Under the pieces are notes generated by a model. The model did no database searches, was not told where the DNA came from, and saw nothing but the letters and a program-made list of their open reading frames with translations. Of a stretch of 24,000 nucleotides of DNA, positions 509-22,146 are shown in pieces. The DNA lies in the NCBI GenBank assembly GCA_031432155.1, contig JASJPP010000028.1, positions 1-24,000 of the forward strand. Reading direction: 5' to 3'. A program made the position numbers and the translations under genes. The stretch is from Patescibacteria group bacterium (GTDB lineage: Bacteria > Patescibacteriota > Minisyncoccia > UBA6257 > UBA9933). Within the stretch, counting starts at the first letter, position 1. The number at the start of each line of letters is the position of its first letter.

Positions 509-579
509 GGGCCTATAGTAAAATGGTATTACGAGTCCATGGCATGGATTAGGTCGGGGTTCGATTCCCCGTAGGTCCA
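509..579 (+). tRNA. tRNA-Ala (anticodon GGC), no encoded CCA; integration target of the element
   Basis: Acceptor is GGGCCTA/TAGGTCC with the G3:U70 alanine identity pair. D stem is GTAA/TTAC. Anticodon arm is AGTCC-ATGGCAT-GGATT, T arm is CGGGG-TTCGATT-CCCCG. Confidence 0.85.
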
Positions 580-2175
580 CAATTCCGAATTTGAAGAAAG
601 ATTGACCTCGCCCGCGCCAAAGGCGCGGGCTCGGGCTGGTATTTCCGCCAAGTCCCGCCAAGGCATTTTGAAATCCGCCAAAAGCATTCCCGCCGCGAGG
701 CGGCGGTTCGAGCCGATGTCCACAAGAAAATCTTTCATCCCCGAAAGATTTTCTTGTTTAATGAGATTTCCGGCTTGGTTGGCTTCTAAAATCCAGTTCC
801 GCATGAGTTCGAGCCAATGATTGCCTTTGTGTTCAAAATCGCTCAATTTCTTTTCTAGTGTTCGTTTTTCCGCCGTCAGCGCGTTCTTGCGCTCCAAGTA
901 CTCGCCGAGTTCCAGTGCTTCGTTTAGGTACGCGTCTGTGAGGCGAGAGAGACGCGCTGAAACGGCGGAAATATCGTTTTTGAGATTTTGAACGAAAAGG
1001 TCTGATGAGTGGTGGACATCGGCGTTTTCGATTTCAAGTTTCTTGAGATATGCGTCCCGCCACTCATCAGGCAAAGAAACTTTTTGAACCATGTCTTGCA
1101 CTTGTCGTGTCAATTCTTTTTCCCGCAAAAAGCGAGTTTGCGAACATTTTTGAGTGTGGCTTTTGAAAGTGCAGTGGTAGTAGTGATAAACCAATCCACT
1201 TTTCTTTATCTTTCGCTCGGCAGTTATCGCGTAGCCGCACTCACCGCATACCGCGAATCCTTTGTACAGCAAACCTTTTTCTCCTCGCTTTTTTCGTGGC
1301 TTTCCATTGACGACAAGTGCCTCTTGGATTTTGTCAAAAAGTTTCTTTGAAATCATTGGCTTATGCGAACCTTGATGTACCTCGCCTCGGTACTGAAAGT
1401 GCCCGTAGTAAAAAGGATTTTTCAAAATATGTTCAACCGAGGCGAGTGCGAGAGGTTTACCACTTCGAGAGCCAACCAAGCCGAGAGAAAACATTTTGTG
1501 CTGAATTGTCGTGAGCGTAAATTGTCCCGTAGCAAAAGCCCCTAAACATTCTTTCACTTTGTTAAAAGTTTTCTTGTCAGGTTCAATCGTCCGAAGTCGT
1601 GGCTCGTTGAAATAACCAAGAGGGGCTTTTGCCGACAATTCACCACGGCGTATTTTTTGCCGAATACCGCGCAAAATGTTTTCTCTCAAATTGTCGGTGT
1701 AATATTTTGCTTGGCCGAAGGCGACACTCAACATAAATTTTCCTTGGGGTGTCGCCTCGAACCAAAATGTCGGGAATTTTAGCGCAACAATTTTTAGTGT
1801 ATCCACAAAATATATGACCTTTCCACCATCAATCGAATTTCTCGCCAAACGGTCTGGATTCCACGCTAAAATTCCCGAGGCAGAACCTTTTTCAATTTCG
1901 CCAAGCATTTCGTTAAAAACTTCACGACCAGGTTCTTTGGCAGTTTTACTCTCATAAAACTCTTTCACCACGAACAAATTTTGTTGCTTGGCGTATTCCC
2001 GAAGCTCATGAAGCTGTGCCTCAATACTTAAAACTTGGCGTTCTTCGTCCTCACTTGATTTTCTACAATATATAAAATATTTGATCATAGCTTCGGGAAT
2101 TAAATTGATAAAAGGTTTTGCATTACATCGACAATTTGTAATCTCATTATACATCGGCTCATGTGCCTTTGGCAC
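529..2175 (-). CDS. Large serine recombinase (integrase/invertase type)
   Basis: The N-terminal resolvase-type catalytic domain shows YCRKSSEDEERQVLSIEAQ and DRLARN. A recombinase domain follows, then a Cys-rich zinc ribbon (CGECGY...YYHCT...C) and a long predicted coiled coil. The ORF-track start at 2175 is GTG. ATG at 2088 (MIKYFIYCRKSS) is the more typical start. The 3' end reads through IR-A and the att core into the antisense of tRNA-Ala. Confidence 0.9.
   Translation of the reverse strand: MPKAHEPMYNEITNCRCNAKPFINLIPEAMIKYFIYCRKSSEDEERQVLSIEAQLHELREYAKQQNLFVVKEFYESKTAKEPGREVFNEMLGEIEKGSASGILAWNPDRLARNSIDGGKVIYFVDTLKIVALKFPTFWFEATPQGKFMLSVAFGQAKYYTDNLRENILRGIRQKIRRGELSAKAPLGYFNEPRLRTIEPDKKTFNKVKECLGAFATGQFTLTTIQHKMFSLGLVGSRSGKPLALASVEHILKNPFYYGHFQYRGEVHQGSHKPMISKKLFDKIQEALVVNGKPRKKRGEKGLLYKGFAVCGECGYAITAERKIKKSGLVYHYYHCTFKSHTQKCSQTRFLREKELTRQVQDMVQKVSLPDEWRDAYLKKLEIENADVHHSSDLFVQNLKNDISAVSARLSRLTDAYLNEALELGEYLERKNALTAEKRTLEKKLSDFEHKGNHWLELMRNWILEANQAGNLIKQENLSGMKDFLVDIGSNRRLAAGMLLADFKMPWRDLAEIPARARAFGAGEVNLSSNSELWTYGESNPDLIHAMDS
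557..601 (+). other. attL-like junction J1 (tRNA arm | CCACA | element arm A)
   Basis: The sequence is ..CCCCGTAGGT-CCACA-ATTCCGAATTTGAAGAAAG. The right half is identical to junction J2. The left half is the tRNA T/acceptor stem. Confidence 0.6.
577..709. repeat. IR-A, left arm (133 bp, perfect inverted repeat of 2195-2327)
   Basis: Base-by-base comparison with the reverse complement of 2195-2327 is identical from c577 to c709 and then diverges (GAGCCG versus CTCAAT). This is confirmed by identical translated segments RRLAAGMLLADFKMPWRDLAEIPARARAFGAGEVNLSSNSELW in ORFs 529..2175(-) and 2190..2375(+). Confidence 0.95.
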
Positions 2176-2194
2176 ATCTTAATCTTTGATTGAG

Positions 2195-2327
2195 GAACCG
2201 CCGCCTCGCGGCGGGAATGCTTTTGGCGGATTTCAAAATGCCTTGGCGGGACTTGGCGGAAATACCAGCCCGAGCCCGCGCCTTTGGCGCGGGCGAGGTC
2301 AATCTTTCTTCAAATTCGGAATTGTGG
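2195..2327. repeat. IR-A, right arm (133 bp, inverted copy of 577-709)
   Basis: See the left arm. It lies between the recombinase start and IR-B and would form the 5' UTR of a recombinase transcript started at the 2330-2338 promoter. Confidence 0.95.
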
Positions 2328-2347
2328 TCATTATACCAAAAAGTTCG
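2303..2347 (-). other. Internal attP-like composite junction J2 (arm B | CCACA | arm A), inverted relative to J1 and J3
   Basis: The reverse complement reads TTTTTGGTATAATGA-CCACA-ATTCCGAATTTGAAG. Its left half is identical to J3 and its right half is identical to J1. The two repeat families overlap by exactly the 5-bp core (TGTGG at 2323-2327). Confidence 0.55.
2330..2338 (-). promoter_or_regulatory. Extended -10 promoter (TGGTATAAT) pointing leftward through J2 and IR-A toward the recombinase gene
   Basis: The minus strand reads TGGTATAAT (TGnTATAAT consensus). The predicted start is about 7 nt downstream, which falls on the CCACA core. There is no good -35, which is acceptable for extended -10 promoters. 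Confidence 0.5.
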
Positions 2348-2660
2348 GACTCATTTCCAGCAGAACCCCGAATGATGTACCACGCGCGGAGCGCGTGGTG
2401 GCTCTGGCCAAAAAGCGTACGCTCCGAGAAAGCCCCACGCACTGGCGAGTACGCCAGCAACCCCGAAAGAAAAAACACTCCTTGCATTTCTGATTTGGCG
2501 GGGGTGAAATTTCTTTTGAAAAAGGAAAGGGTGTTTTTCTTTCGGGGTTCTGCCCTCCAAGTATTCGGGCAGTGCGTGGGGCTTCAATGCGGACTCGACA
2601 AAGCAAAAACTATTTTTGCGGGAGAAAAGGATTTTGCTTTGCCTCGACTTTTTTTGTTTT
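2339..2660 (+). ncRNA. Candidate structured RNA inside IR-B (copy 1); strand assigned only from terminator polarity
   Basis: Several perfect helices are present. 2379-2387/2391-2399 is 9 bp with a GGA loop. 2432-2444/2570-2582 is 13 bp and encloses three elements. These are 2444-2447/2452-2455, 2459-2478/2531-2549 (19 bp, one bulge) and 2550-2555/2567-2572. An alternative 12-bp pairing joins 2361-2372 and 2541-2552. The region ends in a hairpin plus T run. No known RNA family was recognised. Confidence 0.35.
2594..2660 (+). terminator. Intrinsic terminator-like hairpin plus T-rich run at the inner end of IR-B
   Basis: CAAAGCAAAA (2599-2608) pairs with TTTTGCTTTG (2632-2641). An extra TCGA pairing lies across a 2-nt bulge. 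TTTTTTTGTTTT follows at 2649-2660. The stem is AU-rich and the loop is long. Confidence 0.4.
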
Positions 2661-2744
2661 GGAGCGGGAGCGTTTCCGCCGCGCAGGAGGGCGCAGGAGG
2701 AATGCGCGGCGGATTTTACGATTACTGGAGAAAATCTTTTTTAC

Positions 2745-3722
2745 ATGATAATCTTGAAAGATATGAACGATGGTTATTATCGAAGAATAAATTTAGCTGG
2801 ATTATCCGTCGAAACCTGTACAGATAACTCCTTTGTAAATATAAGAGATTTTTTAGATAAATTTGCCGATGATAATCCAGATCAAGGTGAAAACCAAGAA
2901 CTCAAAATATTGTTCGCCAAGGGCAACAGAAAAATAGAACTATCGAGTGGATGGAATTCTTTATCTATCATTGGTGATGATATTGACGACTTACATAACC
3001 CATTTAATTTGATAGGAATTGCTCAAGCACTTTTCAGATTTGCCGCGATTCAACTTGCTCCAAAGGGAATATTTTTGTTACATGGTTCGACTACGGTCTT
3101 AGATGACAAAGCTATCTGTTTTGGGGACGATGGAAGCAGTACGGCCAAAACTCTTAGTTCTTTAGAAGTTGCTCTTGTTTCTAAACACTATGTCGCCGAT
3201 GAGTTTTGTTTTTTTAATTCTCAAACTAAAGAAGTCTCTGGCTATCGTTTTATACCAATTCATATAAGACCAGTGGTGAAAGAACATTTAGAAAAGTGCC
3301 ACGGATTTTCCTCTCCAAAAAGCTATTGTAGAAAGACGCTTGCCGGAGAATTTGTTGAGCAAGATAAATTGTTTACAACTATATCGGGTAAGTTAAAAAT
3401 GTTGGCTTATACTCATTTCTCAGAAAAGGACCCCGAGATTCAAAAATTATCAATACAAGAAGCAACAAAAGCGTTTGGTTTTTGTATAACTTCCCACGTG
3501 GCGAAATTACTCCATCCCAACTTTGATCGAATGCGGTTTTCGTCAATGACCGATACAGATGATGTAAAAATTATTAACGAAGAACTAGTGAGTGAAATAC
3601 TAGCCAAAATAACGAATGGTAACAAAATGCCCCCCGGAATTTTTGAAGAAATCCCTAGTTATAGATTAATCGTTTCTCAACCTTGCCAAATAATTGACTT
3701 GCTTAGAAAAGGAACTGACTGA
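2745..3722 (+). CDS. HPr-kinase-like (HprK-related) putative kinase, cargo gene
   Basis: The segment LHGSTTVLDDKAICFGDDGSSTAKTLSSLEVAL resembles the HprK C-terminal domain core (HG..V...G.G.L..G.SG.GKS), with a degenerate P-loop. The ORF-track start at 2616 is TTG inside IR-B and its terminator, so the first ATG outside the repeat (2745, or 2763) is preferred. Confidence 0.45.
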   Translation: MIILKDMNDGYYRRINLAGLSVETCTDNSFVNIRDFLDKFADDNPDQGENQELKILFAKGNRKIELSSGWNSLSIIGDDIDDLHNPFNLIGIAQALFRFAAIQLAPKGIFLLHGSTTVLDDKAICFGDDGSSTAKTLSSLEVALVSKHYVADEFCFFNSQTKEVSGYRFIPIHIRPVVKEHLEKCHGFSSPKSYCRKTLAGEFVEQDKLFTTISGKLKMLAYTHFSEKDPEIQKLSIQEATKAFGFCITSHVAKLLHPNFDRMRFSSMTDTDDVKIINEELVSEILAKITNGNKMPPGIFEEIPSYRLIVSQPCQIIDLLRKGTD

Positions 3723-4810
3723 GCGTTGTTCTAACAATAGCTTCATCAACATCATTTATAATTTCATATTTCCCAATTCTTTTTAGAATCACTAAATTGA
3801 TCCCTCCATTTACACTAATCTTATCTCTTTTTAAGAGATTGATGATCTGATCGATACTGGTGACATGCGGGAACTTCAACGGTAAATTTGCGGAAGCAAT
3901 CAAAGAATTTTGTAGCTCCAAATCATCCCTGTTTAGAATTCCGAGCTTATTACTTATCTCTCCGCTTATGCACATTCCCAGTGCAACCGCTTCCCCATGC
4001 CTAAAATTAAAATCCGATAGCCCTTCAAACGCGTTTGCAAAAGTATGTCCATAACTCAATCCTTTGTGAGCTCCAAGCTTATCGAATGGGTCTTTAGCAA
4101 CAATCTCGCTTTTGATCCTTAAGGATTCATAAATGACATGATCCCAATTGCAATTTTCCTGACCGTGGGGCACTGAAGACAATGTCGTCGATAAAGTCTT
4201 TGTTAGTTTTGGTGAATAAATAAGAGCATGTTTGATAATCTCGCTCAGTCCCAAACTTACTTCTTTTTCCGGTAATGATTGTAAGAAATTGGTGTCGCAG
4301 AAAGTAAAACGCGGAGAATAAAAACTGCCAATAATATTTTTAAGAAGCTTGTAGCTAATGGCGACTTTGTTGATTATTGTATCTCCTTGAGCCATTAAGG
4401 TCGTCGGGATAAAAACCATATCTACGCCCCTCATATAGACTGAAGCGAGGAAGCCCGGCAACATCTCCCACAATACCGCCCCCTATAGCGATTAAACAGC
4501 TATTTCTATTTAGTCTCGCCGCTACACACTTTTCAAGACATACATTTAAAAACTCAATGCTCTTATTCGCTTCTGTTGGCGTAACTAAAATTATTTCTAC
4601 TGGCTTCAGTTTGGTCTTTACTTCCGATAGAAAATCTCGGTAAAGGTCAGCGATATTGTGATCACAAAAAACAACGAACGAAGAATAATTATTTGAGGCA
4701 ATATTTTCAATTATCCATGAAGAAAAATTAGTGCCTATAAAAATATCCTGTCTTTTGTCAGGCAGAGATACTTTTAGATGTTTAATTGTTTTTTGATTTT
4801 TCGAAAACAT
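3703..4810 (-). pseudogene. 3-dehydroquinate-synthase-family sugar-phosphate cyclase, interrupted by a single-base frameshift near 4450-4460
   Basis: ORF 4355..4810 carries ..IAIGGGIVGDVAG. ORF 3703..4473 continues in another frame with FLASVYMRGVDMVFIPTTLMAQGD, KNIIGSFYSPRF..DTNFLQSLP, YGHTFANAFE and RHGEAVALGM. Together these are the DHQS family motifs in order. Removing one base in GCCGGGCTTC restores a ~369-aa protein. Confidence 0.75.
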
Positions 4811-5555
4811 AGCGCGTAAATTTTTCTATGTACTCATCAACCCTGCGAAAAATATCTAAAATTTCTTTATTGTCACTTAATTCATGCCATTGTTCAATAA
4901 TACGGAAATTGTCCTCAATCACTTCAAAATTAAAACCCGGAAATATCAGCTTTGCTTGATTCAAAACGTCATGATATTCTCCTTGAGAATTTCCTGTTGA
5001 GTATTGAACCGCCAACTTTGTGATTATTAAAGACGCCCGTATTTCTCTTTTCAACAACTCTTTCTTGTTTTTGTCAGTATATAAAGTCGTGGTTAGCGTC
5101 CTTCGGTTCCTTTTAAGAAACATTCCTATGTTGCTTAAACTATATTGTTTCAGGACATCAACATTTGGAGAATAGACCTTTTCGAGGTTAATTGTTTTGT
5201 GAAGATAAATAACTCTTTCAGGATATTTTTTTAAGTCAATAAGCGCTTGAAGCGTTTTACCTTCAAGTAAAATTTCTGGAAATTTCGGCGCTAAAAATTC
5301 TTCTTCGGTAATTACATTTATCCCATGGTGCAGTTTTGTATCATCTTCCAATTTTGCAATTACTCGAGCCAATCTCAATTTTGTGTCAAGATCAAGTTTG
5401 CGGACTACAATTAATAAATCGATATCACTCCATTCTTCTTTGAATGAGTCAGGGAAACTGCCCGCGAGGACTATCGCAACAAGGTTTTCGTTGAGGGCAT
5501 CGAATAATTTATTAACGATGCTCAATTTAATTTTGTTTGAATCTAAACCATTCAT
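4782..5555 (-). CDS. Pol-beta-superfamily nucleotidyltransferase with AadA/ANT-like architecture
   Basis: LVAIVLAGSFPDSFKEEWSDIDLLIVV matches the minimal NTase motif (hG[GS]x9-13DhD). It parallels AadA LLAVHLYGSAVDGGLKPHSDIDLLVTV. Total length is ~257 aa with a helical C-terminal domain. Start and stop overlap the neighbouring genes, suggesting translational coupling. Confidence 0.7.
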   Translation of the reverse strand: MNGLDSNKIKLSIVNKLFDALNENLVAIVLAGSFPDSFKEEWSDIDLLIVVRKLDLDTKLRLARVIAKLEDDTKLHHGINVITEEEFLAPKFPEILLEGKTLQALIDLKKYPERVIYLHKTINLEKVYSPNVDVLKQYSLSNIGMFLKRNRRTLTTTLYTDKNKKELLKREIRASLIITKLAVQYSTGNSQGEYHDVLNQAKLIFPGFNFEVIEDNFRIIEQWHELSDNKEILDIFRRVDEYIEKFTRYVFEKSKNN

Positions 5556-6927
5556 AATCGTCTATAAACTGAATTTTAATTTTCACATACGAATTTATAA
5601 AAAATCGGACAAATCTATAAAATAGAAACGGTCCCTTTAACCTCCACGGCAAGCGCAATATTTTTCGGTAATCTAGTTTTTGAAAAAGAGCGCGAGAACA
5701 CTCCTCAATTCTATCCTTAGAAAAATGTTTTGAAAGTTGTTTAGAGCCGACCATTATGCGAATAAATCTTCGGTAATAATCGGAAAGACTGGCCACAGAG
5801 TTAAAGTAAATTATAGAGTTTTCGACCTCTTTTGTCTGGGGCCAGTATATGTATTGTAAAAATTGGTCTTCATTAAGCACCGCAGGAAGATGAACAAAAT
5901 TTTCTCTTCTTAACATCATGGTGGCCCCTCTCATTATTTCGCTTTGCTTGCGGTAAGGTTGAATATCAAACTTGACCCCCAAAATCCAATGCCAAAACAG
6001 CTTCCATGGATTTTTGCTTTGGAGTGGTAATCTTTTCCATGATGAAAAAATGCATCTCAAATTTTTTTGTGTAATGAGAGCGTCCATGAGATTTGTCAGA
6101 CATTTTTCTTCAAGAATAACATCATCATCAACTACACAGAAAAGCTCTCCGGACGAGACAGAAAAAATTTTGTTTAAGGTGTTTGATTTACCTTTTATGC
6201 CATTGTTTTCTATCAGACGAGTTTTTATATTACTTACATCACTCTCTTTTATGAAATTCTCTACAACCGAGACGGTATTGTCGGTACAATGGTCTGCACA
6301 AATTATCACTTCTTTTCTGATAGAGTCTTTAATCTTCTGCAAGTTTTCAAACAGAGATTGAAGAGTTTTTGAAATTGTAAGTTCACCGTTGTGGATTGGA
6401 ATGGCAATGGTTAGCGATTTTATATCAGTTAGATCTTTATAGGTTTTGACTTTCTTGTTGTAGTAAAAGCATTGTCGCGCCTTAAGAAGGTTTTCTTTAT
6501 CAAATGAAATTTTTTCGACCGCCTCTTCAAATGGAATCCACTCAGCCGCTTCAAACCCCTCATCAGTATTAGGTTTAATCTCTGCTTTTTCATTAAGACG
6601 AAGGACGTAGAGATGAACATTCTTATAGTGAGTAGTATCGCTATCGTCAAGAGTAAATGTGTAACTATCAATCTTCAAAAACGAAACGATCTCCGGAGTT
6701 TCTTTTAGGGTAAGTTCTTCTTTAACTTCCCTTATTGCGGCATCCTGCGCTCCTTCGCCTTTTCTGATGTGACCTTTTGGAATGAGGTAATGTCCGTCTG
6801 GTTTACGTAATAAAGCTACAAACGGCTCGTGAGTCTTGTCGTCTTCGAAAAACACAAAACCTCCGGCAGATTCATGTTTTATGCCGTTTGGCGAATATTC
6901 AATTTGATCGTTTTCGTTAAATTCCAT
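5527..6927 (-). CDS. Nudix hydrolase - family 2 glycosyltransferase fusion protein
   Basis: The N-terminus carries a Nudix box, GHIRKGEGAQDAAIREVKEELTL (Gx5Ex7REUxEExGU). The C-terminal ~290 aa has GT2 features: LTIAIPIHNGELTISKTLQSL, ICADHCTDNT, and VVDDDV as the DxD motif. Confidence 0.8.
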   Translation of the reverse strand: MEFNENDQIEYSPNGIKHESAGGFVFFEDDKTHEPFVALLRKPDGHYLIPKGHIRKGEGAQDAAIREVKEELTLKETPEIVSFLKIDSYTFTLDDSDTTHYKNVHLYVLRLNEKAEIKPNTDEGFEAAEWIPFEEAVEKISFDKENLLKARQCFYYNKKVKTYKDLTDIKSLTIAIPIHNGELTISKTLQSLFENLQKIKDSIRKEVIICADHCTDNTVSVVENFIKESDVSNIKTRLIENNGIKGKSNTLNKIFSVSSGELFCVVDDDVILEEKCLTNLMDALITQKNLRCIFSSWKRLPLQSKNPWKLFWHWILGVKFDIQPYRKQSEIMRGATMMLRRENFVHLPAVLNEDQFLQYIYWPQTKEVENSIIYFNSVASLSDYYRRFIRIMVGSKQLSKHFSKDRIEECSRALFQKLDYRKILRLPWRLKGPFLFYRFVRFFINSYVKIKIQFIDDYEWFRFKQN

Positions 6928-6933
6928 CGTTGT

Positions 6934-6962
6934 ATTATAGCGGTTTTTAGCGTGGATTGGAA
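6934..6962 (-). promoter_or_regulatory. Candidate promoter of the Nudix-GT2 / NTase / cyclase operon; probably yields a leaderless or near-leaderless mRNA
   Basis: The minus strand has TATAAT (6939-6934) only 6 nt upstream of the ATG at 6927. TTCCAA (6962-6957) lies at a 17-nt spacing as a weak -35. Confidence 0.35.
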
Positions 6963-6992
6963 AAGCGGCTCTATCTTTCGAGAGAGCCGCTT
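6957..6992 (-). terminator. Intrinsic terminator (minus strand) just inside the right cargo boundary
   Basis: A 10-bp perfect stem joins 6963-6972 and 6983-6992, with 2 more inner pairs. On the minus strand it is followed by TTTTCC. It lies directly after the stop codon of the ORF tail at 6996. Confidence 0.45.
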
Positions 6993-6995
6993 GGG

Positions 6996-7100
6996 TTACG
7001 GGAGATATTTCTGAACCAGTTGGTCTATCTTCTGGTAGAGTTCCTTGAGCGTCCCAGAATTGTCAACAACTTCGCCTGCGATCTCCTTGAGCGCTGGGAT
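6996..7100 (-). other. Orphan 3' coding end (35 codons, ..AGIPALKEIAGEVVDNSGTLKELYQKIDQLVQKYLP*) abutting IR-B
   Basis: This is the non-repeat part of ORF 6996..7217(-). It has protein-like amphipathic composition and a stop followed immediately by a terminator hairpin. The only in-frame starts lie inside the structured repeat. Confidence 0.25.
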
Positions 7101-7128
7101 TCCTGCGCGGCGGAAACGCTCCCGCTCC

Positions 7129-7195
7129 AAAACAAAAAAAGTCGAGGCAAAGCAAAATCCTTTTCTCCCGCAAAAATAGTTTTTGCTTTGTCGAG
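7129..7195 (-). terminator. Second copy of the IR-B terminator-like hairpin (reads inward, toward the cargo)
   Basis: Exact mirror of 2594-2660. Confidence 0.4.
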
Positions 7196-7450
7196 TCCGC
7201 ATTGAAGCCCCACGCACTGCCCGAATACTTGGAGGGCAGAACCCCGAAAGAAAAACACCCTTTCCTTTTTCAAAAGAAATTTCACCCCCGCCAAATCAGA
7301 AATGCAAGGAGTGTTTTTTCTTTCGGGGTTGCTGGCGTACTCGCCAGTGCGTGGGGCTTTCTCGGAGCGTACGCTTTTTGGCCAGAGCCACCACGCGCTC
7401 CGCGCGTGGTACATCATTCGGGGTTCTGCTGGAAATGAGTCCGAACTTTT
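7129..7450 (-). ncRNA. Candidate structured RNA inside IR-B (copy 2)
   Basis: Exact mirror of 2339-2660, with the same helices. Confidence 0.35.
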
Positions 7451-7486
7451 TGGTATAATGACCACATTTTAGAAAAGGGCAAGATA
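7442..7486 (+). other. attR-like junction J3 (arm B | CCACA | host flank)
   Basis: The sequence is TTTTTGGTATAATGA-CCACA-TTTTAGAAAAGGGCAAG. The left half is identical to J2 and the right half is unique. Confidence 0.6.
7451..7459 (+). promoter_or_regulatory. Extended -10 promoter (TGGTATAAT) firing outward across the attR-like core into host DNA toward the ydcF-like gene
   Basis: TGG TATAAT lies at 7451-7459. The CCACA core at 7462-7466 is where the transcription start is expected. Confidence 0.5.
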
Positions 7487-20541: not shown

Positions 20542-22146
20542 ATGCGCGAAAAAACACATTCCCGCAAAGGATATCTTTTTATTGAGGCGATGGTCGCCAT
20601 CAGTATTATTATTCTCGGAATTTTGGGAATGGTTGTTCTTCTTTCGCGTTCGTTGAGCATTAATCGGGTGATAAGCGATCAGTTTGACGCTTCTTATCTG
20701 GCCAGTGAAGGCATTGAGGTTGTCAAAAACATCATTGATGCCAACGTCATTCAGGGAAGGCCGTGGAACGACGGCCTTGGCAACGGCGATTTTGAAATCG
20801 TTTATAACAGTTTGATCATGGAACCGGATTCCAATCGTTATCTTTTGTTTGATTCCGGCACCGGCCGTTTCAATTATCAGACCGGCTCCTTAACGTTTTT
20901 TGTCAGAACGGTTTCTTTGGAGCAGATTGACGATGATTGCGTTCCCGGAGCGGAAAGAATAAGAGTTAATTCTTTGGTTGAGTGGAGAACCCGCGGCGGC
21001 GGAGATTTTAAAATTGATCTGGAAGATAATTTTTTTGATTGGCGGAGCGGCGGCGCGGTTGTTTGTGGCGCCGGTCCGGGGCCTGGTCCCGGCCCGGTTT
21101 CCAATTGTATCGGCAGCGGCGCGGTTAATCACGCCGGCGCCGATTGGACGCCGAATTCCGGCGATTTTATCTGCGGTCTTCACACAAACATTAATAATTT
21201 CAGAATTAACGGCGGCGATACGGTTTACGTTACTCCTTATGACGGCGTTAATTCAAATTATGGATTTTTGGAAGTTCAGGCGAATAATAACGCGCAAATT
21301 TTGGGGACTTTAACGGCTTCCGGCGCAGGATATGGAGGAGGAGGGGGAGGAGGGGGAGGGGGAGCAAACTCTAGCGTAGGAGGAACTGGGGGATCCGGAG
21401 TTTCCGGAGGTGCAACGGGAAATGCGGGTGGAACTAGCAGCGGCGATCCCGGCGCGTCTGGCGGTTCGGGCGGCGGCGGAGGTGGATCTTATGGCGGCGG
21501 AAGCGGATTTGCCGGAGGACCAGGAAATCCCGGCGCAAATGGCAGCGCAGGCGGTATGGGCGGTTACGCGATTGTGGGCGGTAATGGCGATTCTTCAACT
21601 AACGAATTTCTCAATATCGGCTCTGGCGGAGGCGGCGGAGGAGGCGGCGGCGGCGGAAACGCAAGTTGGCCTTATGGCGGATCCGGCGCCGGAGGTGGCG
21701 GAGGCGGCAATCGCGGCGGCGGTCAAATTATGCTTCGCGCTACTGCCTTGTTAATTATTTCTGGAATCGTAAATACAACGGGAGAATTTGCTGCTACCGG
21801 AAATGGTGGCGGAGGAGATTGGGTTTCAGGATCCGGCGGCGGAGGCGGTTCCGCAAGCGGTGTTGGGGCATCAAATGGCGGTGCCGGAGGAGTAAATGGA
21901 TTTACCGCGGCCACCGACGGCGGAAACGGCGGTTCTGGCGCCGCCGGCGCCGGCGGCGGCGTATTGTTAAAAGGCAATCAAGTAAATATTGCCGGCGGAT
22001 CGACGATTGACGCCCGGGGCGGCGGAGGTCTTTCCGCTAACGGCGGAACCCTGAAAATTTTTTCCGATAATTTGATCAACAACGGTTCCGTTTTGAGCGG
22101 CGCGCTTTGCGCCGGCCCTTATTCCGGGCCGTGCGTGTATCAATAA
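20542..22146 (+). CDS. Pilin-like protein (PilV/GspI-like N-terminus) fused to a ~350-aa glycine-rich, beta-helix-like C-terminal domain
   Basis: The prepilin-like signal is KG|YLFIEAMVAISIIILGILGMVVLL, with Glu at +5. The C-terminal region has runs of 9-13 Gly, GGxGG repeats and an ending ..VNIAGGSTIDARGGGGLSANGGTLKIFSDNLINNGSV. Local GC is clearly higher than the surroundings. Confidence 0.7.
   Translation: MREKTHSRKGYLFIEAMVAISIIILGILGMVVLLSRSLSINRVISDQFDASYLASEGIEVVKNIIDANVIQGRPWNDGLGNGDFEIVYNSLIMEPDSNRYLLFDSGTGRFNYQTGSLTFFVRTVSLEQIDDDCVPGAERIRVNSLVEWRTRGGGDFKIDLEDNFFDWRSGGAVVCGAGPGPGPGPVSNCIGSGAVNHAGADWTPNSGDFICGLHTNINNFRINGGDTVYVTPYDGVNSNYGFLEVQANNNAQILGTLTASGAGYGGGGGGGGGGANSSVGGTGGSGVSGGATGNAGGTSSGDPGASGGSGGGGGGSYGGGSGFAGGPGNPGANGSAGGMGGYAIVGGNGDSSTNEFLNIGSGGGGGGGGGGGNASWPYGGSGAGGGGGGNRGGGQIMLRATALLIISGIVNTTGEFAATGNGGGGDWVSGSGGGGGSASGVGASNGGAGGVNGFTAATDGGNGGSGAAGAGGGVLLKGNQVNIAGGSTIDARGGGGLSANGGTLKIFSDNLINNGSVLSGALCAGPYSGPCVYQ

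Follow-up and report, generated by a model that had tools for sequence, protein, structure and literature searches.

Does the long inverted repeat that lies beside a recombination core in this Patescibacteria genome encode a structured RNA, or does its folding potential have another origin? The window, i.e. the whole 24,000-nucleotide stretch analysed here, carries a 366-bp segment in two copies, 2323–2688 and 7101–7466, which are inverted, as reported in a preliminary description that proposed a novel structured RNA at 2339–2660, and are 100% identical. The helices of the repeat are real and far above chance. Direct checks of complementarity gave 13/13 for the closing helix (2432–2444 with 2570–2582), 9/9 for the upstream GC hairpin (2379–2387 with 2391–2399) and 12/12 for 2361–2372 with 2541–2552, and the terminal hairpin (2594–2649) is followed, as described, by a T run (TTTTTTT at 2650–2656). 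Two of the original claims had to be trimmed: the 19-bp stem 2459–2478/2531–2549 does pair over 19 bp but with one bulged A and a longest perfect run of 16 bp, and the second of the two perfect partners ascribed to 2541–2552 is perfect over 9 bp only (2459–2467 with 2541–2549), not 12. Five perfect stems of at least 9 bp occur in the repeat, compared with a mean of 0.19 and a maximum of 2 in 200 shuffles. RNA folding of 2324–2665 yielded −137.3 kcal/mol for the + strand (z = −5.6 vs shuffles) and −133.0 kcal/mol for the − strand (z = −6.7), and the minimum-energy fold recovered the closing helix around three hairpins, reproducing the four-way-junction-like layout.

No RNA family in Rfam accounts for these helices. 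At gathering scores, the proposed search (Rfam 15) returned nothing in the window but its five tRNAs; with the limit relaxed to E = 10 there were only sub-threshold miRNA-type matches, none of them credible. Consistent with the earlier failure to see signatures of RNase P, tmRNA, SRP or 6S RNA, neither setting produced anything credible for these four, for introns or for riboswitches, and ARAGORN reported no tmRNA. The motif TTCGGGGTTCTG is present in both orientations in the repeat (2541–2552 and 2361–2372) and resembles the T-arm of the target tRNA, TCGGGGTTCGA (553–562); GGGTTCT is repeated near the recombination core in other clades, and the motif may be a recombinase half-site. Elsewhere in the window (21472–22048) a 31-nt unit rich in GGCGGCGGAGG occurs six times in diverged form; this array resembles a coding repeat rich in glycine and has nothing to do with the 366-bp segment.

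At the scale of the locus, the sequence of 577–7466 reads as a 6.9-kb integrative islet of a large serine recombinase (LSR) at the 3′ end of a tRNA-Ala(GGC) gene, with the following features.

509–580, + strand: tRNA-Ala(GGC), found by ARAGORN and Rfam, the 3′ end of which forms the left half of the attB target.
577–581, no strand: J1 core CCACA, attL (tRNA/A), from junction comparison of the window and 11 loci.
577–709, − strand: left arm of IR-A, a 133-nt inverted repeat, 100% identical, which codes for the recombinase's C-terminal extension as far as the crossover site.
529–2091, − strand: LSR gene in its integrated form (Pfam Resolvase, Recombinase and Zn_ribbon_recom).
2146–2177, − strand: promoter-like site of the recombinase, GTGCCA-18-TATAAT, from a consensus scan.
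2161–2177: operator-like perfect 17-bp palindrome ATGTGCCTTTGGCACAT, overlapping the recombinase promoter-like site, by direct reading.
2195–2327, + strand: right arm of IR-A (A′), in which the 3′ end of the recombinase gene is repeated in inverted form.
2323–2327, no strand: J2 core TGTGG, internal inverted attP (A′/B), from junction comparison.
2325–2375, + strand: protein-coding first part of arm B (WSLYQKVRTHFQQNPE, then stop), which is the tail of the recombinase in the frame across attP.
2689–7100, no strand: cargo segment Z, with one ORF without assignment, a split DHQS-like gene, a nucleotidyltransferase and a Nudix-glycosyltransferase.
7101–7466, − strand: right arm of IR-B (B′), identical to 2323–2688 and ending at the J3 core.
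7462–7466, no strand: J3 core, attR (B′/Y), from junction comparison.

The CCACA core is common to the three window junctions, tRNA/A, A′/B (inverted) and B′/Y, and these show that arms A (133 bp) and B (366 bp) are each present twice, in inverted orientation. J1, J2 and J3 have the compositions expected of attL, an extra internal inverted attP and attR, respectively, and on these assignments the element spans 577–7466. The 366-bp repeat is thus arm B of the attachment site, occurring twice because the element holds an internal inverted attP, and the proposal that it abuts the crossover site of a recombinase agrees with the junction comparison. The recombinase itself is readily recognized by Pfam (E-values 1.8e-20 for Resolvase, 6.6e-09 for Recombinase and 2.5e-08 for the zinc ribbon).

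Several smaller features of the islet can be recorded here. The candidate operator ATGTGCCTTTGGCACAT looks suited to a helix-turn-helix repressor; the XRE gene typical of relatives is absent from the window. The 3-dehydroquinate-synthase-like cargo gene (3703–4810, − strand) is split into overlapping ORFs, 4355–4810 and 3703–4473, probably by a frameshift or as a pseudogene. A short ORF without a Pfam match (6996–7100, − strand) runs from arm B′ into the cargo (..GIPALKEIAGEVVDNSGTLKELYQKIDQLVQKYLP, then stop) and may be a gene fragment left by rearrangement. Arm A has TTGGCGG(A/G) three times in a 40-nt stretch (2222–2262 and 642–682) that lies in the tail-coding part of the recombinase gene; it may represent a binding motif or a mere consequence of the encoded peptide.

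A scan of one genome per species uncovered more than 571 relatives of the recombinase, at 71–96% identity, which were assigned almost exclusively to Patescibacteria (CPR) lineages. Almost every related locus has IR-A on both sides of the recombinase gene, and the order [B-cargo-B′][A′-recombinase-A]tRNA recurs in ~20 independent CPR assemblies with enough flank, including one long-read assembly (L062). A tRNA lies directly beyond arm A in 21 of the 23 loci with flanks (20 tRNA-Ala and one tRNA-Ser). Arm A measures 124–133 bp and arm B 190–400 bp, and the copies are usually 96–100% identical within a genome. The junctions of 11 loci agree with one another (...GGTCCACCA/A, ...ACACCACCA/A and ...ACACCAC/Y) and share the core CCAC(CA), and only the types tRNA/A, B′/A and B′/Y were found, i.e. 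hybrids of the two parental sites; no empty tRNA/Y site was retrieved among the related loci. Moreover, two contigs from one groundwater project (L207 and L208) are ~99% identical up to TGTGG, beyond which one continues into B and the other into a tRNA, indicating that the core is the real crossover point.

The cargo, 1.5–4.7 kb long in related loci, is different in every one of them and includes methyltransferases, restriction genes, Nudix, an Erm-like methyltransferase, a two-component system and DUF218. In most loci, an AT-rich stretch and then the gene of an XRE-type regulator come after B. The cargo operon of the window and of L062 runs away from the distal junction and toward the recombinase, whereas most loci have it the opposite way round, which implies that the cargo segment was inverted between the B arms in evolution, unless short-read assemblies set its orientation arbitrarily. 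The same B-cargo-B′ unit, 99.5% identical, is found in L093 (1926–4413) and L139 (1785–4279); it adjoins the recombinase in L139, and L093 has no recombinase, a different genomic context and one decayed arm. Phage or plasmid origin of the family was considered and rejected, the closest LSRs in phage and plasmid collections sharing at most 28% identity with the window recombinase and IMG/VR giving two partial matches only.

Assembly is a concern wherever long perfect repeats occur, and the inverted duplications could in principle be an artefact produced by an invertible or an excised-plus-integrated population. Indeed, both pairs of arms are 100% identical in the window, many of the recombinase relatives lie at contig ends and many related contigs break inside A or B. 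The breaks at the two arms are systematic: 45 of 80 related contigs begin no more than 400 nt from the recombinase gene, and several are just 1.4–2.5 kb long. However, the same architecture is shared by the ~20 independent assemblies, long-read L062 among them, unique sequence flanks each arm on both sides, and the arms differ by substitutions or a 55-nt deletion within some genomes, namely L007, L133 and L002, the last with arms of 96% identity. The duplications are almost certainly not artefactual.

What, then, does arm B contain? The reading frame of the recombinase runs through arm A and past the crossover site, and in the attP configuration it gains 16 codons of B. The part encoded by arm A (..IGSNRRLAAGMLLAxFKxPWxxLAE..) is kept as protein across loci. 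The tail codons in B (2325–2372, stop at 2373–2375) follow the consensus W-S/C-L-x-x-KVRTHF-x-x-NP-D/E-stop, and a KVRTHF-type tail with a stop at codon 15–19 is present in ~100 of 115 B copies. In the set of tails found through protein, which is unbiased by the DNA pattern used to find other B copies, minor alleles fall 55, 32 and 121 times on codon positions 1, 2 and 3, respectively, and the KVRTHF core displays synonymous changes only, e.g. CGG/AGA. The conservation of the tail together with this variation by codon position identifies 2325–2372 and the stop as the tail of the recombinase in its attP configuration. In the integrated copy the tail codons of B are replaced by antisense tRNA sequence, and database ORFs accordingly have two endings, the KVRTHF tail or the tRNA-antisense tail. 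The ORFs of the repeat had been dismissed as junk-like in composition; this does not hold for all of them, since the 3′ end of ORF 2190–2375 is genuine coding sequence. Likewise, the preliminary description had named a match to a protein-coding gene fragment as evidence against an RNA, and such a match exists for 2339–2375 of the region 2339–2660.

A recombinase joined to a B-type tail is seen only in the truncated remnants L155, L203, L204, L207 and L209 and in the composite array L098, the last having a full-length gene; beyond these, the loci gave no clean case of an excised circle or of a flipped recombinase segment, the latter never being seen among related loci. Such recombinase-end plus B loci are remnants or composite arrays. 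In many loci only the last 50–170 recombinase codons and arm A are kept, and in L203 (6750–8050), L204 (349–1214), L155, L207 and L209 the remnant is joined to a B arm by an attP-type junction in line with the gene. In L098 (1–1814), an A-recombinase-A′ unit lies between two different B arms with the tails DEIRTFF and EKVRTHF, a layout that suggests tandem or hybrid arrays, perhaps formed by recombination between attL-type and attP-type sites. We also considered B as a 5′ leader of the recombinase gene and rejected it, because the gene has its own promoter-like site and operator-like palindrome, which lie between A′ and the start codon.

The remainder of B and its immediate flank (2376–2712) consists of four GC-rich palindromic modules, m1–m4, which start a few bases past the tail stop.

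2379–2427, no strand: m1, the 9-bp GC hairpin (2379–2399) and a conserved stretch ending GTACGCTCCGA, by complementarity check.
2429–2585, no strand: m2, a four-way junction (covariance model R1, 138.7 bits).
2594–2656, + strand: m3, a hairpin of the form CTCGAC-stem-loop-stem-CCTCGAC plus T7, by direct reading and complementarity check.
2676–2712, no strand: m4, hairpin CCGCCGCGCA...TGCGCGGCGG around the G-rich loop GGAGGGCGCAGGAGGAA; the two repeat copies are identical (366 bp) up to 2688, inside this loop.

Module m2 is built from the closing helix 2432–2444/2570–2582, a small hairpin (2445–2458), a long hairpin (2459–2549) and a third hairpin (2550–2569). A pattern scan of metagenomes added ~100 further B copies, and across the family a median of 10 nt separates the tail stop from the first hairpin. 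In most relatives the run of palindromes ends at the promoter of the XRE-type regulator and cargo operon. The modules are combined differently between elements, with a mosaic presence and absence, and are not kept as a set. Module m1, with the loop GGA or its complement TCC, is present in the window, L007, L026, L028 and L040. Module m3, flanked by the motif CTCGRC, is terminator-like in this window only; in relatives its stems covary and its loops flip, e.g. in L175 compared with L010/L191. Two possible promoters were discarded: hexamers inside m2 are not conserved, and an extended −10 element (TGgTATAAT, 2330–2338, − strand) is limited to the clade of the window and lies in tail-coding DNA. 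A 62-aa ORF on the − strand of the palindromic part, tried as a conserved small ORF, is broken in relatives.

Covariation in homologs, another check proposed at the outset, is strong. When 24 distinct m2 sequences were aligned to the covariance model, 95.5% of the cells were paired, and 17 of the 33 base pairs varied on both sides. The covariation score reached 0.421, compared with 0.199 for shuffles (0 of 500) and no more than 0.137 for slid-partner controls. The compensatory changes, like the lack of an Rfam match, thus agree with a novel structured RNA at 2339–2660, from which the coding part 2339–2375 has to be subtracted. A discrete RNA should bear a strand signature, with G·U but not A·C tolerated and with better folding of the sense strand, but the helices of 104 sequences count 776 vs 755 G·U pairs on the two strands, which differ in folding energy by 0.2 ± 9.8 kcal/mol on average. 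Among the isolated mismatches of 199 long stems, 11 are G·T, 13 A·C and 24 of other kinds. In the m2 alignment alone the two ways of counting diverge: by cells G·T exceeds A·C, 27 vs 15 with a doubtful helix left out, and by columns the counts are 9 vs 12.

Orientation also varies. The G-rich loop family is seen 39 times forward and 18 times flipped, and the same GCGC stem encloses TTC in L093 (GCGC-TTC-GCGC) and GAA in L160 (GCGC-GAA-GCGC). Loops are flipped even between near-identical elements, L175 vs L010/L191 and L167 vs L201. Furthermore, the whole segment within the 13-bp closing helix of m2 is inverted in L005 and L197, and since these belong to different m2 subtypes, the inversions are two separate events. 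In all but these two lineages m2 has a single orientation, with conserved unpaired stretches, which would also suit a directional RNA or a protein-binding element. The loops, e.g. GGAAGGGGGTTGGGGGGAAGG, are more conserved than expected of a neutral spacer, and this counts against a spacer reading.

Signals of transcription are similarly scarce. A consensus scan of the window identified no + strand promoter-like site upstream of B. In the family, T-runs (at least 5 T in 8 nt) follow hairpins in 9% of cases in one direction and in 5% in the other, and with T-runs this rare classical termination is unsupported; the pattern of an intrinsic terminator, a GC-rich hairpin running directly into a U-tract, is present at 2594–2656 in the window but is not kept across the family. 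Collectively, the strand-neutral, flipped and mosaic palindromes, lacking a promoter and poor in T-runs, favour DNA palindromes over a discrete RNA gene. Thus, a discrete structured RNA, as initially proposed, is not supported by the tests of strand, orientation and architecture that can be made on these sequences: its helices taken together bear no strand signature, loops and m2 are flipped, modules are mosaic, and neither a + strand promoter nor a conserved U-tract after hairpins is found.

A cis-acting RNA is a different matter. Palindromic B could form the 3′ UTR of the excised-form recombinase mRNA, its distal copy being the 3′ end of the cargo operon, and could stabilize or end transcripts, with the four-way junction of m2 as the functional fold. 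Such a role would fit the strong covariation, the start of the hairpins so shortly after the tail stop codon and the T7 after the last hairpin of the window; it would also fit the constant orientation of m2 in most lineages, the few U·G pairs that persist on its B_out strand and the likeness of loops such as TTCG and TACG to stable RNA tetraloops. Against it, overall strand asymmetry is absent, loops are exact reverse complements in sister elements, m2 was flipped twice, T-runs are rare, modules are not kept as a set and the proximal copy in the integrated element lacks an upstream + strand promoter. We regard this possibility as rather unlikely.

The palindromes might instead act as folded DNA, either as cruciforms that aid synapsis by the recombinase or by fold-back of single-stranded DNA (A:A′, B:B′) that rebuilds a double-stranded attP. 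Palindromes are indeed nested at every scale, from stems of 9–20 bp and the 13-bp helix around 125 bp to the 133-bp arms around the recombinase gene and the 366-bp arms around the cargo; they behave in a strand-neutral manner, tolerate flips and include a motif of the d(GCGAAGC)-type mini-hairpin, which is stable. However, conserved loop sequences would still require a reader, and ~50-bp duplex sites are all that the LSRs characterized so far need. Folded DNA is a clearly unlikely explanation. In a more elaborate form, the nested repeats would be an adaptation to movement as single-stranded DNA, with A:A′ and B:B′ forming a dumbbell whose stem is a complete double-stranded attP and with the small palindromes as folding nuclei. 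Natural competence is a plausible route of DNA entry for CPR cells, and an element acquired in this way could be recognized by the recombinase or primed for second-strand synthesis without host homology. We give this scenario only slight credence. A related reading concerns the inverted spare 3′ end (A′ plus tail), by which the integrated recombinase would regain its excised-form C-terminus by flipping its own gene.

The preliminary description also drew an analogy, as pure speculation, to guide and bridge RNAs at the ends of other elements, according to which B would encode a trans-acting RNA that programs the recombinase. In IS110-type systems, an IS110/IS1111-type recombinase works with an RNA that base-pairs through its loops with both target and donor. 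The CPR element shares with the bridge and seek RNAs of IS110/IS1111 (reviewed in PMC13604230) a structured non-coding DNA adjoining the crossover site, and this position and the rich structure are all that speaks for the analogy. The window enzyme is a classical LSR, not of the IS110/IS1111 type, the core-proximal part of B is protein-coding and there is no strand signature. Moreover, the target is in all cases a tRNA 3′ end closing with CCAC(CA), almost invariably that of tRNA-Ala, which the freely varying part of B does not track. The analogy is unsupported, and an RNA of this kind is very improbable indeed.

We consider it reasonably probable that the repeat is att arm B of an LSR islet at tRNA-Ala and combines a coding tail with strand-neutral palindromes that are likely a spacer or insulator, not a trans-acting RNA. 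The compensatory changes and loop flips would then have arisen at the level of DNA. Template switching during replication is known to generate perfect stems, multi-base compensatory changes and inverted loops (PMC8794818). Each palindrome of one B copy recurs in the other copy on the same strand with its loop inverted, and short-patch conversion between the copies would for this reason flip loops. Template switching within palindromes and short-patch conversion between the inverted copies are the likely routes of the flips. Lying between the cargo promoter, on one side, and the crossover site and end of the recombinase gene (3′), on the other, the palindromes would be a spacer or insulator that works in both orientations, and they might act by forming hairpins in transcripts of either direction or as DNA that is bound by protein or extruded into cruciforms; a role as a discrete trans-acting RNA is not expected.

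Our literature search found no paper on this CPR LSR element. The closest systems are LSR genomic islands at tRNA or tmRNA genes, namely the Dehalococcoides ssrA islands (PMC3146451) and the LSR-bearing minority of tycheposons (bioRxiv 10.1101/2020.12.28.424599), with which it shares small variable cargo, an LSR of Resolvase, Recombinase and zinc-ribbon domains, and insertion at the 3′ end of a tRNA-type gene. Unlike these islands, it has an internal inverted attP that turns both att arms into long inverted repeats, its recombinase ORF crosses the crossover site, and the family is CPR-wide and only distantly related to phage and plasmid LSRs. An attP within a gene is known from integrases of the SSV1 type, which are split by integration, and from the integration-dependent immunity of mycobacteriophages. 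There, too, integration alters the product of the attP-spanning gene, but in the CPR element the exchange concerns no more than the 16 final codons of a serine recombinase. The yeast 2-micron plasmid carries FLP/FRT inverted repeats and encodes a tyrosine recombinase. Excision by J1 × J3 would predict a similar circle, in which two inverted ~0.5-kb repeats, each with a recombinase site, part two unique segments; unlike the plasmid, however, the CPR element has a serine recombinase and no replication gene, and flipping of the recombinase segment is not seen. Finally, the perfect stems, multi-base compensatory changes and fully inverted loops are shared with template-switch hairpins, which were described in RNA genes (PMC8794818), whereas here the pattern is shown by an att arm present in two copies, and conversion between these copies is a second way in which flips could arise.

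These results bear on how structured RNAs are discovered. Strong covariation and very negative folding z-scores can stem from DNA palindromes, and because such palindromes can mimic RNA covariation, strand asymmetry and loop orientation should be checked before a structured RNA is called. Mobile elements of CPR/Patescibacteria are poorly described, and two features of the present one stand out, the integration-dependent C-terminus of the recombinase and the internal inverted attP. In a serine recombinase, the first of these may be relevant to the control of directionality without a separate factor. The LSR family is unusually conserved (71–96% identity) over many CPR lineages and carries restriction-modification, Nudix, methyltransferase and sugar-modification genes. 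Given this conservation and cargo, it probably serves these reduced genomes as an important means of exchanging genes.
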